A stretch of DNA of 43,001 nt from Chloroflexota bacterium (GCA_016844585.1 JAERMM010000001.1:1-43001); one strand, 5' to 3'. Numbered from the stretch's first letter, positions 23,911 through 30,239 are shown. Notes: a model not told the origin generated them from the sequence alone. Made by a program: numbers and translations.

Positions 23911-25143
23911 TCAAAGAAAGACAAGCGACACGTTGTGGCCCCCAAAGCCGAAGGCGTTGGTGAGTACACAGCGGAGTGACAGTGAGGGGGCGTGGCCAGT
24001 CACGATGTTGAGCGGACAGGCGAGATCCCGAACCTCGAGGTTGCGGGTGGGGGGAACGACGCCGGTGCGCAACGCCATGATGGCCGCGATAGCCTGCACC
24101 GCGCCTGCTGCCCCGAGCAGGTGGCCGAGCGACGACTTTATGGCCGTAACCGGCGTTGTCAACGCAATGTCGCCGAGCGCCACCGCCAGAGCCCGCGCCT
24201 CGGCGCGGTCGCCCGCTTGGGTGCTCGTCGCATGCGCGAAGACTACATCGACGTCTGACGGACTCATCGCGGCCTGTGCGAACGCCAGCGACATAGCGCG
24301 CGCGGCGTGCTGCCCGCTCGGGTCTGGGCGCGTGACGTGGACGGCGTCAGTGGTCGCGCCGTAACCAACCAGCTCCGCCAGGATGGTGGCGTCACGGCGT
24401 CTGGCATGGCCCAGCTCCTCGATCACGAGTACGCCCGCCCCCTCGCCCAGGACGAAGCCGTCGCGCCCCACGTCAAACGGCCGGCTTGCCTCTTCGGGCG
24501 CATCGTTGCGCCGCGACAGCGCGCCCGAGGCGTCGTCACCTGCGATCGTGAGGGTCGTAATGCACGCCTCGGCGCCGCCGCACAGCATGACGTCGGCATC
24601 GCCCCGCCGGATCACGCTGGCGGCCTCCCCTATCGCCTGCGCGCCCGTGGCGCATGCCGAGCCGAGGGTGAAGCTTGGCCCGTGAAGGCCGAAGTGAATG
24701 GCGACCTGGGCGCTCGCCATGTTGGCGAGCATGCGTGGAACGGCCCATGGGCTCACGCCGTGGCCACCAGGTTGCTCCAGAGCACTCGCCTCCCGCAGCA
24801 GCGACACCTCGCCGCCATGGCTCGATCCTATGACCACGCCCGCCCGGTTCGGATCGAAGCCGCTCTCGGCTAGGGCTGACTGTCGAAACGCTTGCAGTGC
24901 AGCGGACAGCCCGAAGAGCGCGAATCGGTCCATCTGCTTCACGTCTCGTGGCTCGATCTCAGGCGGAGGCGCGAAGTCGCGTACCTCCGCCGCGATGCGA
25001 CTCGCAAAGCGGGAGGCGTCGAACGCGGTGATCGGGCCAACGCCGCTCTGTCCGGCGCAAAGGGCCTCCCAAAAGGACGCGACATCGTTGCCGAGGGGCG
25101 TGATGACGCCCATGCCCGTGACCACGACGCGCCGGGCCTTCAT
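23911..25143 (-). CDS. fabF: Beta-ketoacyl-ACP synthase II (FabF)-like protein with an atypical polar acyl pocket
   Basis: RRVVVTGMG, SACATG (Cys164), SRPFD.GRDGFVLGEGAG, AHATST, KSSLGHLLGAAG, NAFGFGGHN; ATG overlaps the PIN-toxin stop. Confidence 0.9.
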   Translation of the reverse strand: MKARRVVVTGMGVITPLGNDVASFWEALCAGQSGVGPITAFDASRFASRIAAEVRDFAPPPEIEPRDVKQMDRFALFGLSAALQAFRQSALAESGFDPNRAGVVIGSSHGGEVSLLREASALEQPGGHGVSPWAVPRMLANMASAQVAIHFGLHGPSFTLGSACATGAQAIGEAASVIRRGDADVMLCGGAEACITTLTIAGDDASGALSRRNDAPEEASRPFDVGRDGFVLGEGAGVLVIEELGHARRRDATILAELVGYGATTDAVHVTRPDPSGQHAARAMSLAFAQAAMSPSDVDVVFAHATSTQAGDRAEARALAVALGDIALTTPVTAIKSSLGHLLGAAGAVQAIAAIMALRTGVVPPTRNLEVRDLACPLNIVTGHAPSLSLRCVLTNAFGFGGHNVSLVFL

Positions 25144-25499
25144 CTGGGTCGAGAGAGGTAGTCGACCCCGTAGGGGGGCAGTCCGTCCGGGTGCAGCGCG
25201 GCGAACGACGCGATGGCGTGAGCTAGCTCGCTCTCTCGATCACCCCGAATTGATCGTGGTACGAGAACAGCGCCGGCATGAGGCCAACCCTCGGCGGCAA
25301 ATAAGTTGGTCAGATGCCGGAAATCGCGTCGGTCATAGGTGACGATGCATCGACCTTCCCGGCCGGCCAGGCCAAGCTGCATTTCGTCCGTGAGCCGGTC
25401 CCGACCGCATTCGTGCGAGCTGATGGCGTCCACGCCCAGGCTGCGTGCGATGACTGCAACCTGCGCAGAGATGTTCTCGTCGAGCAAGAAGCGGATCAA
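25140..25499 (-). CDS. DUF5615-like PIN-domain protein (VapC45-type toxin)
   Basis: RFLLDENIS, TDE.QL..A..EGR.IVTYD..DF, HAG.VL motifs. Confidence 0.85.
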   Translation of the reverse strand: MIRFLLDENISAQVAVIARSLGVDAISSHECGRDRLTDEMQLGLAGREGRCIVTYDRRDFRHLTNLFAAEGWPHAGAVLVPRSIRGDRESELAHAIASFAALHPDGLPPYGVDYLSRPR

Positions 25500-25512
25500 G
25501 CGCGGTTACCCG

Positions 25513-27703: not shown

Positions 27704-29052
27704 TCGGGCGACTCGGTCACCGCGCGTACGGACTCTTCGACCACATCGAGCAAGAAGGACAGCTCTGCCTCCGAGATAACCAGTGGCGGCATCACCGCGA
27801 TGACGTTGCCGAGTGGTCGAAGGATGAGGCCACGAGCCCGAGCCTCATTGCAGACCCGGTGCCCCACCCGCTCGACTGCAGGGAAAGGCTGTCGGCTGTC
27901 GACGTCGCGAACCAGCTCGACGCCGGCCATGAAGCCGCGCTGGCGCACGTTGCCGACGTGCCGCAGCGTTTCCAGGCGGCGCAGGCCTTCGGTCAGCTGG
28001 CTGATCCTGGGCTGCAGCTTGTCGAGGGTGCGTTCGGTCTCGAACAGATCGAGGCTGGCGAGCGCCGCCGCACATGCAACCGGGTTCCCCGTGTAGGTGT
28101 GCCCATGGTAGAAGGTGCGGCCCGAATCTATCGGTCCGAGAAACGCTCGATAGATCTCCTCCGTGGCCAGCGTTGCGGCGAGAGGTAAGTAGCCACCACT
28201 CAGTCCCTTGCCGATGGCCATCAAGTCAGGCTCGATTCCCTCCTGCTCGCAGGCGAACATCGTGCCGGTTCGACCGAAGCCCGTCGCCACCTCGTCGACG
28301 ATAAACAGCACATCGTGCTCGCGCGCTGTCTCACGAATCGCGCGCGTGTAACCAGGGGGAAACGCGATCATGCCTGCCGCTGCCTGGATCATCGGTTCCA
28401 TCACAACGGCTGCCAGCTCGTCCGCATGCGCGGCGATGGTGCGTTTCACCTGATCGAGGCACGCGATCCCGCACGACGGATAGCTCTTTCTCAGATGGCA
28501 GCGATAACAGTAGGCTCCCGGTTCTTGATAAATCGGGAAGAGCAGCGGCTTGTAGAGCGCATGGTAGAGGTCGACGCCGCCCACGCTCATCGCGCCCACC
28601 GTGTCGCCGTGGTAGTCGTTGTTCAGTGAGAAGAAGCGGGTCTTGCTCGGTCGGGGCGGGTCGGTCTGCTGCCAGTATTGGAACGCCATCTTGAGGGCGA
28701 TTTCGACGGCAGCTGCGCCCGTGTCCGAGTAGAACACGCGCCGCAAATGGCCAGGCGCCAGTTCCACGAGTCGTCGCGCTAGCTTGGTCGCCGGCTCATG
28801 GGTCAAGCCGAGAAAGGTTGTGTGGGCCACGCGGTCGAGCTGGTCGATAATCGCGGCGTTGATCTCGGCGCGCCGATGCCCGTGTGCCGTCACCCAGAGC
28901 GAGGAGACGCCGTCCAGATAGCGCCGACCCTCCGAATCAAAGAGATAACAGCCATCCGCGCGGTCGATCACGAGCTGCGGCTCGGCCTCCCAGATCTCCT
29001 GTTGCGTGAAAGGGTGCCAGAGATAGTGCTTGTCGTCCGCTTCGACGCTCAT
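27700..29052 (-). CDS. bioA: 7,8-diaminononanoate (DAPA) aminotransferase
   Basis: [76 protein letters not shown] motifs. Confidence 0.95.
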
Positions 29053-30239
29053 GCCACCATGCCGAGTGACGCGCCGACTCGGCGGAAAGCATCGATGGCA
29101 AGCACGATGTCATCCGCGGAATGCGTCGCCATCACGGTCGCCCGAACCCGCGCCGCTCCCATTGGAACGGACGGCGGCCGAACCGCTACCGCGAAAACTC
29201 CCTCGGCGCGAAGCGCAGCGGCGAAATCCAACGCTCTCCGCGACTCGCCGACGAGCACCGGAACGATTTGGGTCGTCGAGCCGCTGATATTGAACCCGGC
29301 ATCTCGAAGCCCCCTCCGAAGCTGAGCCGCGTTGTCTTGCAGCCGCTGGACTCGCCACAGATCGCGCTCAAGGAGATCCAGGGCAGCGAGACCGGCGGCC
29401 ACGACAGGGGCCGGAAGGGCTGTCGTAAATGTGAAGCTGCGACTCGTGTTGATCAGATAGTCGCGAAGCAGGGCCGGTCCTGTCACCAGAGCACCCAGCC
29501 CACCGAGCGCTTTGCTGAGCGTGCTCATCGATGCGGTAACCTGGGACTCGAGCTGCAGCTCGGCGACAAGCCCTCGCCCGCCAGGCCCCAAACAGCCCGT
29601 CGCGTGCGCCTCATCCACCATCAGCATGGCGTCGTATCGCGAGCAGGCCTCGGCGATCTCGGTGAGCGGCGCCTCGTCCCCCTCCATGCTGAACACCGTG
29701 TCCGTCACAACCAGGCGGCGGCGAGTCCCGGTGCCTCCGGCGGTGGATGCCAGAGCATCTCGCAAGGCGCCGACGTCGGCATGTGGGTAGCTTCGAAACT
29801 CAGCGCGGCTGAGTCTGCAGCCGTCGATCAGGCTGGCATGGTTCAACTCGTCGCCAAGCACCAGGTCGCCGGCCCCGACCAGCGACGGAATCACCCCCAG
29901 GTTCGCGGTGTAGCCGCTGGTGAAAAGCAACCCGCTCTCCATCCCCTTGAACGCCGCGAATCGAGACTCGAGAGCTTCGTGGAGGTGCGAGGTGCCCGCA
30001 ATCAGCCGAGACGACCCGCTGCCGCAGCCCTCATCATCAGCCGCCGTCGCCATCGCCGCGGCGAGATCGGGGTGCCCGGCAAGGCCGAGGTAGTTATTGG
30101 AGCTGAGATTCAGCAGCCGCCGCCCCTCGATCTCGATCCAGGGCGCCGCGCCGCCCTCGAGCTGCGTCAGCTTGCGCCGCAGGCCTCGGCGCTCGAGCCC
30201 ATCCAGGCGACGGTTCATAAAGTCGATCGGAAGGGACAC
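29049..30239 (-). CDS. bioF: 8-amino-7-oxononanoate synthase
   Basis: NLSSNNYLGLA, GSGSSRLIAG, SGYTAN, DELNHASLIDG, VFSMEGD, VDEAHATG, TLSKALG motifs. Start is GTG 30239 or TTG 30287. Confidence 0.95.
   Translation of the reverse strand: MSLPIDFMNRRLDGLERRGLRRKLTQLEGGAAPWIEIEGRRLLNLSSNNYLGLAGHPDLAAAMATAADDEGCGSGSSRLIAGTSHLHEALESRFAAFKGMESGLLFTSGYTANLGVIPSLVGAGDLVLGDELNHASLIDGCRLSRAEFRSYPHADVGALRDALASTAGGTGTRRRLVVTDTVFSMEGDEAPLTEIAEACSRYDAMLMVDEAHATGCLGPGGRGLVAELQLESQVTASMSTLSKALGGLGALVTGPALLRDYLINTSRSFTFTTALPAPVVAAGLAALDLLERDLWRVQRLQDNAAQLRRGLRDAGFNISGSTTQIVPVLVGESRRALDFAAALRAEGVFAVAVRPPSVPMGAARVRATVMATHSADDIVLAIDAFRRVGASLGMVA

Follow-up and report, generated by a model that had tools for sequence, protein, structure and literature searches.

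Condensing enzymes of biotin biosynthesis

In the BioC-BioH route to biotin, the problem of passing a dicarboxylate through fatty-acid-type elongation is solved by altering the substrate, malonyl-ACP disguised as a methyl ester, so that an ordinary beta-ketoacyl-ACP synthase (KAS; ACP, acyl carrier protein) accepts it. BioZ, which is encoded in alpha-proteobacterial bio clusters, has been reported to use glutaryl-coenzyme A (CoA) and malonyl-ACP for the formation of pimeloyl-ACP, both in extracts and with a defined mixture of enzymes (PMC7645780), and the C5 carboxyl of its glutaryl group is described as being held by two serine hydroxyls at the bottom of the substrate tunnel (PMC12625853). 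In Desulfovibrio vulgaris, random barcode transposon-site sequencing (RB-TnSeq) showed that the FabF-like, ACP, FabG-like and FabZ-like genes of the bio cluster are needed without biotin, in a study that refers to Rodionov 2004 and to Lin and Cronan 2011 (PMC10102598). The subject here is fabFx, a gene for a FabF-like KAS II paralogue that lies at the end of a biotin operon in a stretch of 43,001 nucleotides (the window) from a Chloroflexota bacterium (GCA_016844585.1, JAERMM010000001.1:1-43001), and in whose product the acyl pocket of the KAS, instead of the substrate, appears to be altered. FabFx belongs to a conserved clade that is encoded with biotin genes in three phyla, and it is probably a condensing enzyme of the pimelate pathway of some kind.

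An earlier note, made by a model from the sequence of this DNA, had proposed a new route to the pimeloyl thioester. The clade to which FabFx belongs is orthologous neither to BioZ nor to the FabF-like enzyme of the Desulfovibrio bio cluster, but the concept, a FabF-like enzyme devoted to biotin whose active site is less hydrophobic, is already in print for Desulfovibrio (PMC10102598). No account of a FabF paralogue in Chloroflexota-type bio clusters was found in a literature search that was thin on subscription journals, and a recent paper on metagenome-assembled genomes (MAGs) places fabF, in its available text, only within a generic BioC-BioH module (PMC12942990).

The fabFx gene and its product

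The window is contig C43 of a 443-contig genome that is 80% complete, and its closest protein matches carry Chloroflexota names. The series bioF-bioA-bioD-bioB and the FabF-like gene that the earlier note had read on the minus strand are each matched by a family model, and the four bio genes all score above their NCBI equivalog cut-offs. The end given for the span (30239) falls short of the longest bioF open reading frame (ORF), which begins at a TTG codon at 30287, and the start of bioF is uncertain. The genes are:

29049..30287, minus strand: bioF, 8-amino-7-oxononanoate synthase (TIGR00858, 438.4 bits, cut-off 426.45)
27700..29052, minus strand: bioA, adenosylmethionine-8-amino-7-oxononanoate transaminase (TIGR00508, 533.8 bits, cut-off 405)
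26963..27703, minus strand: bioD, dethiobiotin synthase (TIGR00347, 160.2 bits, cut-off 83.3)
26022..27011, minus strand: bioB, biotin synthase (ORF as listed 26022-26849; TIGR00433, 356 bits for the short form)
23911..25143, minus strand: fabFx, FabF-like KAS II paralogue of 410 amino acids (TIGR03150, 510.5 bits, cut-off 493.75)

Together with a DUF433-like ORF and a DUF5615 ORF, these genes form a tight operon, all on the minus strand.

FabFx contains the ketoacyl-synthase domains PF00109 (192 bits) and PF02801 (120 bits) and passes the FabF equivalog cut-off only narrowly, compared with 632 bits for the housekeeping copy of the same genome. The catalytic residues Cys164, His304, Lys336 and His341 are retained. 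Cys164, the catalytic histidine motifs and the three substituted motifs listed in the earlier note are all where it had placed them: GSSHGGE at residue 106, PWAVPR at 132, SACATG with Cys164, LTIAGDD at 198, HATST at 304 and GHN at 402. At the sites of the three substituted motifs the housekeeping FabF has GSGIGGI, PFLIPM and LPIGVAGFA, and two solved FabFs aligned residue by residue (4qav, 1e5m) have GSGIGGL/GTGIGGL, PFFIPG/PFMIPM and L(G/S)xxGF. A phmmer alignment paired residues 3-409 of FabFx with residues 2-409 of chain 1b3n, and the numbering offset of one residue (Cys164 and Lys336 in FabFx, C163 and K335 in titles of Protein Data Bank entries) makes His109, Thr199 and Asp203 the counterparts of Ile108, Gly198 and Phe202 of Escherichia coli FabF. 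An AlphaFold2 model of FabFx built from 44 relatives has a mean predicted local distance difference test score (pLDDT) of 94 and matches solved FabFs with a template modelling (TM) score of 0.96, a root-mean-square deviation of 1.3-1.5 A and 44-47% identity; residue positions can be transferred by homology because the model superposes so closely.

The three E. coli residues line the acyl pocket, as the earlier note had stated: Ile108 and Phe202 are reported to form the back gate of the acyl-binding pocket, alteration of which shifts chain-length specificity and antibiotic sensitivity (bioRxiv 10.1101/2021.02.13.431092), and Ile108 and Gly198 to direct the acyl tail (PMC4606726). This hydrophobic gate is not kept in FabFx. 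As read from the sequences, an invariant His109/Asp203 pair, with Glu112 one turn on, replaces it.

Conservation of these residues was assessed among the 121 closest database proteins (the query included), of which 90 carry the signature [GS]S[STA]HGGE and 31 are ordinary FabFs. His109, Glu112, Thr199 and Asp203 are invariant in all 90 signature proteins, as are Cys164, His304, Lys336 and His341, and Phe400 of the GFGG gating loop is invariant or nearly so across the clade members and the query; position 108 is Ser, Thr or Ala, and position 272 is Arg or His in 87 of the 90. The ordinary FabFs have Ile at position 109 (31/31), Ile, Val, Met or Leu at 112, Met at 137 (29/31), Phe at 203 (29/31) and Ala at 272 (28/31), and about 19 positions in all separate the two sets. 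The polar pocket postulated in the earlier note, comprising His109, Glu112, Asp203 and Arg137, is thus fixed in its first three members, but position 137 is Arg or Lys in only 83 of the 90 and Gln or His in the two closest relatives. Similarly, Asp203 of the LTIAGDD motif discriminates the signature proteins from ordinary FabFs, but Thr199 does not, since it also occurs in eight of the 31 ordinary FabFs.

The phylogeny was inferred with IQ-TREE from 54 rows: the query, 22 signature proteins (every fourth) and 11 non-signature proteins (every third) from the database hits, five FabFx from other loci, the two other KAS of the window's genome, nine FabFs from diverse phyla, two Desulfovibrio KAS and two KAS from Desulfovibrio-type bio clusters. 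Support is given as the SH-like approximate likelihood ratio test (SH-aLRT), and the root was not inferred. The signature rows, one with the variant SSSHGGE among them, form a single group (SH-aLRT 100) that is sister (96) to a group of non-signature FabF hits, several of which are named Chloroflexota or Anaerolineae, and the members from Latescibacterota and Gemmatimonadota are nested within the FabFx clade. FabFx is a conserved clade and not a decaying copy: the catalytic residues are intact and the signature invariant in 90 relatives, and the fold is predicted with confidence, all of which excludes decay of a duplicate.

Linkage of fabFx to biotin genes

Twenty-one other loci with the signature were gathered from the genomes of relatives, two alignment-guided scans, a pattern scan and a scan with the Thermosporothrix protein, and their flanks were probed by tblastn with the Bio proteins of the window and with Pfam. 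The DNA pattern scan for G-x-[VLI]-[VLI]-G-S-x-H-G-G-E found at least 119 stretches, mostly chance matches, with 16 blocks of true KAS among the matches listed; the alignment scans (with the full-length clade and with a 113-residue sub-alignment) were dominated by generic KAS motifs, with few true members among the matches listed, so that this census of fabFx loci is a sample and not a count. Linkage to bio genes, which the earlier note had suggested looking for, was found at 14 of these 21 loci; two are unlinked, and linkage at five (L260, L268, L291, L307, L323) is left undecided by the 8-kb block retrieved, which is not centred on the gene and stops at it. The linked loci occur in several classes of Chloroflexota, in Latescibacterota and in Gemmatimonadota, and at least five gene orders are represented (bioFADB-fabFx, bioFAD-fabFx, bioB-A-F-fabFx-bioD, fabFx-bioB-A-F, and bioF-bioD followed at a distance by a ligase of the biotin protein ligase (BPL) family and fabFx):

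L139: bioF-A-D-B-fabFx
L390, Thermosporothrix hazakensis ATCC BAA-1881 (cultured): bioF-A-D-B-fabFx, with fabFx at L390:9016-10227
L090: bioD-bioB-fabFx
L229, Thermomicrobia MAG: bioB-fabFx
L144, Chloroflexaceae: bioF-A-D-fabFx
L145, SAR202: bioB-A-F-fabFx-bioD
L306: bioB-A-F-fabFx
L146: fabFx-bioB
L234 and L320, Latescibacterota, and L254, Gemmatimonadaceae: fabFx-bioB-bioA(-bioF)
L237 and L274: fabFx, about 3.3 kb with glyoxalase and arylsulfotransferase-like genes, then bioB-A-F
L325: bioF-bioD, other genes, BPL-family ligase-fabFx

Two of the loci that could not be judged (L260, L268) share an upstream peptidase-M1 neighbour with L274. Dedicated genes for ACP, FabG or FabZ were not found by Pfam in the flanks of eight loci (L139, L140, L145, L237, L260, L268, L274, L325) or in the window. 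Among candidates that were set aside, a Desulfovibrionaceae match (L264) proved to be fortuitous, lying in a frame that is not coding, and two proteins of about 550 bits (in G136 and G120) were ordinary FabFs with neither the signature nor bio neighbours.

Some details of individual loci can be recorded here. The bioF match of Thermosporothrix hazakensis is split between two frames (L390:4850-5083, 5037-5957), which may reflect a frameshift or a sequencing error. On the Dehalococcoidia chromosome with L325, the interval between bioD and fabFx (L325:3161-6193) encodes an MvdD-type ATP-grasp protein and a PCMT-type methyltransferase, which are presumably an inserted peptide-modification cassette resembling those for ribosomally synthesized and post-translationally modified peptides, together with the BPL/LplA-family protein, a biotin or lipoate protein ligase.

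Co-occurrence with BioB and known routes to pimelate

BioB was found in all 12 carrier genomes tested (G000, G001, G005, G269, G452-G455, G448-G451; in the last four by the linked bioB). Among the window's genome and 40 relatives, FabFx is present in three of six BioB-positive genomes and in none of 35 BioB-negative genomes; the relatives include one genome flagged as unpublished (G037) and a wider Chloroflexota sample includes six more, none of which carries FabFx. The three BioB-positive relatives without FabFx (G012, G017, G021) do not have BioC either. One of them, a relative from the same order, has the gene order bioB-A-F-D (L388, on G021:C19), with a 244-amino-acid ORF that matches no family after bioD (L388:4606-5340), and another, likewise of that order, has bioB (L389, on G012:C162); both loci are without fabFx.

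The carriers appear to lack the known routes, which agrees with the earlier note. No BioC match exceeded the cut-off in six carrier genomes (best 68 bits, cut-off 185) or was found in the 41 genomes of the relatives' tally at E <= 1e-25, and no BioW was found in the six carriers, three of which are single-contig assemblies. The absence of bioC, bioH, bioW, bioI and bioZ from the window was borne out by a scan of its 38 long ORFs, which found no BioC, BioW, BioH-grade, P450 or KAS III gene; its single alpha/beta hydrolase (11544-12344) reaches 47 bits, against the BioH cut-off of 207. Absence of BioZ is judged from counts of KAS III, because no BioZ-named NCBIfam model appeared among the matches of two KAS III proteins. 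The window's genome (G000) and G005 each have a single KAS III (FabH), beside a housekeeping fabF, and G449 has two; two single-contig Dehalococcoidia carriers (G448 with L306, G450 with L274) have no FabH-family match at E <= 1e-20. The separate housekeeping fabF that the earlier note had anticipated exists in the window's genome (C442:8444-9664, 632 bits), next to fabH (C442:6887-7858), and fabFx lies outside this fab cluster, encoded with bio genes instead of fabH, fabD, fabG and acpP.

Comparison with BioZ and the Desulfovibrio-type clusters

FabFx resembles BioZ in that a condensing enzyme of fatty acid synthesis appears to have been recruited to bio clusters, the genomes being ones in which none of BioC, BioH and BioW was found (for FabFx, BioH was looked for in the window only), and in that a single specialised gene would suffice, its product being passed to ordinary reductases. 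The logic of the reaction is also likely to be shared, namely an omega-carboxy C5 primer and malonyl-ACP (PMC7645780, PMC12625853). However, BioZ is a KAS III with a Cys-His-Asn triad, whereas FabFx is a KAS II with Cys-His-His-Lys, and the two have no common origin below the thiolase superfamily. The site proposed for the carboxyl group differs as well: two serines in an otherwise hydrophobic tunnel in BioZ, as opposed to His, Glu and Asp plus an Arg at the gate in FabFx, for which the substrate is predicted.

The Desulfovibrio-type cluster, with the FabF-like DVU2563, resembles the fabFx loci in placing a FabF-family KAS in a bio cluster of organisms without bioC and bioH, and for Desulfovibrio a genetic tie to biotin synthesis has been published and a less hydrophobic active site suggested (PMC10102598). 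The examples compared with FabFx were picked by their position next to bioF in two genomes of the Desulfovibrionaceae family (G439, G440) and are not DVU2563 itself. These KAS (L383:6167-7465, L382:8981-10159) are 33-34% identical to FabFx, compared with 49% for ordinary FabF; their gate loops read GSGPHL or GTGPTL and GGLLxY, whereas FabFx has GSSHGGE and TLTxAGD; and in the tree their branch is long and separate (SH-aLRT 100). Dedicated ACP, FabG and FabZ genes accompany the Desulfovibrio-type KAS but were not found with fabFx in those flanks that were scanned. FabFx is thus an orthologue of neither BioZ, from which the KAS II fold separates it, nor the Desulfovibrio-type KAS, given the low identity, the different motifs and the separate branch. 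Among ordinary enzymes, housekeeping FabF (TIGR03150) shares with FabFx the fold, the length, the catalytic residues and 44-50% identity.

In the two Desulfovibrio-type examples the bio cluster is extended (L382:8541-11258, L383:4527-7971), and the KAS is flanked by ORFs of 122-300 amino acids for which size and position are the sole grounds of the names FabG-like and FabZ-like. In one Desulfovibrio genome (G416), no fab-like genes accompany bioB-bioD-bioA, and the pocket of the second KAS is normal.

Proposed reaction

The clade, its pocket and its gene neighbourhoods suggest, tentatively, that FabFx is a KAS II devoted to biotin synthesis that uses an omega-carboxy primer, most likely glutaryl, for condensation with malonyl-ACP. 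The short acyl primer, as a CoA or ACP thioester, would be loaded onto Cys164, and its free carboxylate would be gripped where the shortened pocket ends, by His109 and Asp203 with Glu112, Ser108, Thr199 and usually Arg or Lys at position 137 on either side. The His/Asp gate is predicted to shorten the pocket and to provide a polar anchor approximately 5-7 carbons from Cys164, the place expected for a glutaryl adduct's omega-carboxylate. Decarboxylative condensation with malonyl-ACP by His304, His341 and Lys336 would yield 3-oxopimeloyl-ACP, which housekeeping FabG, FabZ and enoyl reductase would convert to pimeloyl-ACP, the substrate that would then feed BioF. A single specialised condensation like that of BioZ is favoured because the scanned flanks add only a KAS, with no ACP, FabG or FabZ gene. 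The substrate, the roles given to individual residues and the use of housekeeping reductases are predictions, unlike the gene, the signature, the clade, the linkage and the negative searches for known pimelate routes.

Several observations weigh against this assignment. The primers of KAS I and KAS II are normally acyl-ACPs. According to the BioZ paper, in its available text, glutaryl-ACP has not been observed in nature (PMC7645780). A CoA transferase or ligase that would form a glutaryl thioester was not found linked to the clusters in the flanks scanned by Pfam. Within the pocket, Glu112 and Asp203 would repel a carboxylate unless paired with His109, Arg137 or a metal; Arg137 is not invariant in the clade, and position 270, which is Glu in 85 of 90 relatives, is Val in FabFx of the window. 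The role in pimelate synthesis is argued from comparative genomics, and two loci (L140/L392, L309/L391) have no bio genes within approximately 9-10 kb of fabFx, with BioB elsewhere in both genomes. The negative results for other routes cover BioC, BioW and KAS III counts, and models for BioZ, BioI and BioE were not run; the BioC model is narrow, exceeding its cut-off in just two of 14 control genomes, so that a divergent BioC could be missed, and the window's genome is just 80% complete. FabFx is also rare, being present in three of 401 sampled Chloroflexota and, in a phylum sample of 61 genomes centred on G449, only in G449 itself, although 26 of the 61 have BioB.

If the candidate is confirmed, condensing enzymes would have been recruited independently to biotin synthesis for a third time, and exchange of the Ile-Phe gate would be seen to re-tune the acyl pocket of KAS II for a charged substrate. 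The clade offers a candidate pimelate enzyme for poorly studied phyla, namely Chloroflexota (SAR202, Dehalococcoidia), Latescibacterota and Gemmatimonadota, and one carrier, Thermosporothrix hazakensis ATCC BAA-1881, is in culture. Recognition of the clade is useful for annotation, because its genes are currently named beta-ketoacyl-ACP synthase II, and it has a bearing on predictions of vitamin auxotrophy from metagenomes and on the engineering of dicarboxylate production.

Alternative functions

FabFx could serve biotin synthesis by other chemistry, elongating malonyl-ACP itself, with no methyl ester, in two rounds (malonyl to 3-oxoglutaryl, then glutaryl to 3-oxopimeloyl) in place of BioC and BioH, although this, the strongest of the alternatives, seems unlikely. 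Malonyl-ACP is always available and calls for no further gene to supply it, in keeping with clusters in which fabFx is the sole addition, and BioC and BioH-grade genes were not found (BioC in carriers and relatives, BioH in the window). A malonyl thioester on the active-site Cys would, however, be prone to decarboxylation, and the altered residues lie at the back gate, several carbons from Cys164, a position that would suit a C5 carboxylate better than a C3 carboxylate. Elongation free of methyl esters, with less hydrophobic active sites, has been proposed for Desulfovibrio (PMC10102598), but the KAS of Desulfovibrio-type clusters is just 33-34% identical to FabFx and lacks its signature, and these clusters (L382, L383) carry dedicated ACP, FabG-like and FabZ-like genes. 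The presence of those genes suggests that C5 intermediates may need special reductase and dehydratase steps, which the fabFx clusters do not supply. It is likewise doubtful, if conceivable, that FabFx alone turns fatty acid synthesis into a factory for pimeloyl-ACP, the His109-Asp203-Glu112 gate, perhaps with a metal, anchoring the omega-carboxylate of malonyl-ACP and then glutaryl-ACP primers until growth stops at C7; one gene would then replace BioC and BioH with neither a methyl ester nor lysine-derived glutaryl-CoA, and the module would have moved between phyla with bioB.

Improbably, FabFx might be a second KAS of fatty acid synthesis, either limited to short chains or an elongase for specialised lipids, that travels with bio genes and has no role in pimelate synthesis. 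Such an enzyme would be expected neither to adjoin bio genes in at least five gene orders and three phyla, one of these orders with fabFx between bioF and bioD, nor to be absent from all 35 BioB-negative relatives, and ordinary acyl chains are not easily squared with an acyl pocket whose charged residues are invariant; moreover, a normal fabF is also present in the window's genome. What speaks for a fatty acid function is the score above the FabF equivalog cut-off (510.5 bits against 493.75) with all catalytic residues kept, the two loci unlinked to bio genes, and the two carrier genomes with no FabH match, in which an odd KAS could serve initiation.

There is still less reason to suppose that FabFx elongates the methyl ester of malonyl-ACP with the help of a BioC/BioH-type methyltransferase and esterase too divergent to be recognised. 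The BioC model is indeed exceeded in just two of 14 control genomes, many S-adenosylmethionine-dependent methyltransferases score 60-68 bits on it in every genome, and the window encodes an alpha/beta hydrolase, but this hydrolase is approximately 11.5 kb away and far below the BioH cut-off (47 bits against 207), the scanned flanks of fabFx show no conserved methyltransferase or esterase gene, and a methyl ester calls for a hydrophobic pocket, not one of His, Glu and Asp.

A spare FabF insensitive to inhibitors (self-protection of the cerulenin or platensimycin type) or a decaying duplicate is very improbable, since no biosynthetic cluster for such a compound was found near fabFx in the flanks and window scanned and decay is excluded as described above, even though changes at the Ile108 gate are reported to confer antibiotic resistance (bioRxiv 10.1101/2021.02.13.431092) and a structure of Bacillus subtilis FabF I108F exists (4ls6).

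Organization of the operon and neighbouring genes

The operon of the window is translationally coupled by ATGA stop/start overlaps, which join bioF to bioA, bioA to bioD and the DUF5615 ORF to fabFx. The start of bioB is probably an ATT codon at 27011. The short ORF that begins at ATG 26849 enters TIGR00433 at profile position 42, without the conserved N-terminus; the frame is open further upstream (26850-27011) but offers no ATG, GTG or TTG before the conserved N-terminus, and the ATT codon at 27011 lies 6 nucleotides behind GGAGG and overlaps the end of bioD by 49 nucleotides. The homologous start codon is ATT behind AGGAG in a relative (L090) and ATG in Thermosporothrix (L390).

Other features of the operon and its surroundings are:

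25513..25956 (longer form to 26022), minus strand: antitoxin-like ORF of 147 or 169 amino acids with a DUF433-like C-terminus
25140..25499, minus strand: toxin-like ORF, DUF5615 (PIN/Mut7-C-like; PF18480, 52.3 bits, cut-off 23.8)
30672..32033, plus strand: major facilitator superfamily (MFS) transporter of the oxalate/formate or L-lactate type (PF07690, 124 bits; NF049980, 121 bits, cut-off 320)

The toxin-antitoxin pair of the earlier note is supported only in part: the DUF5615 member has a strong family match, but the DUF433 match of its partner (16.2 bits, E = 0.009) is under the Pfam cut-off; the N-terminus of this partner, judged by eye, reads as resembling a ribbon-helix-helix. The pair stands between bioB and fabFx in the window only, and bioB adjoins fabFx in L090, L139, L229 and L390. 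Because the stop codon of the DUF5615 gene overlaps the start codon of fabFx, translation of fabFx may be coupled to the toxin-like gene.

The MFS transporter gene is divergent from bioF, a neighbour whose membership in the system is uncertain; the transporter could carry biotin or a dicarboxylate precursor. Homologues with 29-33% identity are encoded near FabFx or bioB in three Dehalococcoidia loci (L146:27-344, L260:783-1961, L268:1084-2268) and in one relative without FabFx (L389:4914-6152). A partial gene cut by the edge of the window (2-1246, plus strand) scores above the cut-off for malonyl-CoA synthase (NF005702, 563.7 bits, cut-off 558), at a distance of 22 kb from the bio cluster. Elsewhere the window encodes ordinary functions: cobalamin genes (1295-4997, minus strand; cobQ-like, an aminotransferase and cbiB), groES-groEL (17300-19346, plus strand) and a sacsin-like ATPase (19508-21022).

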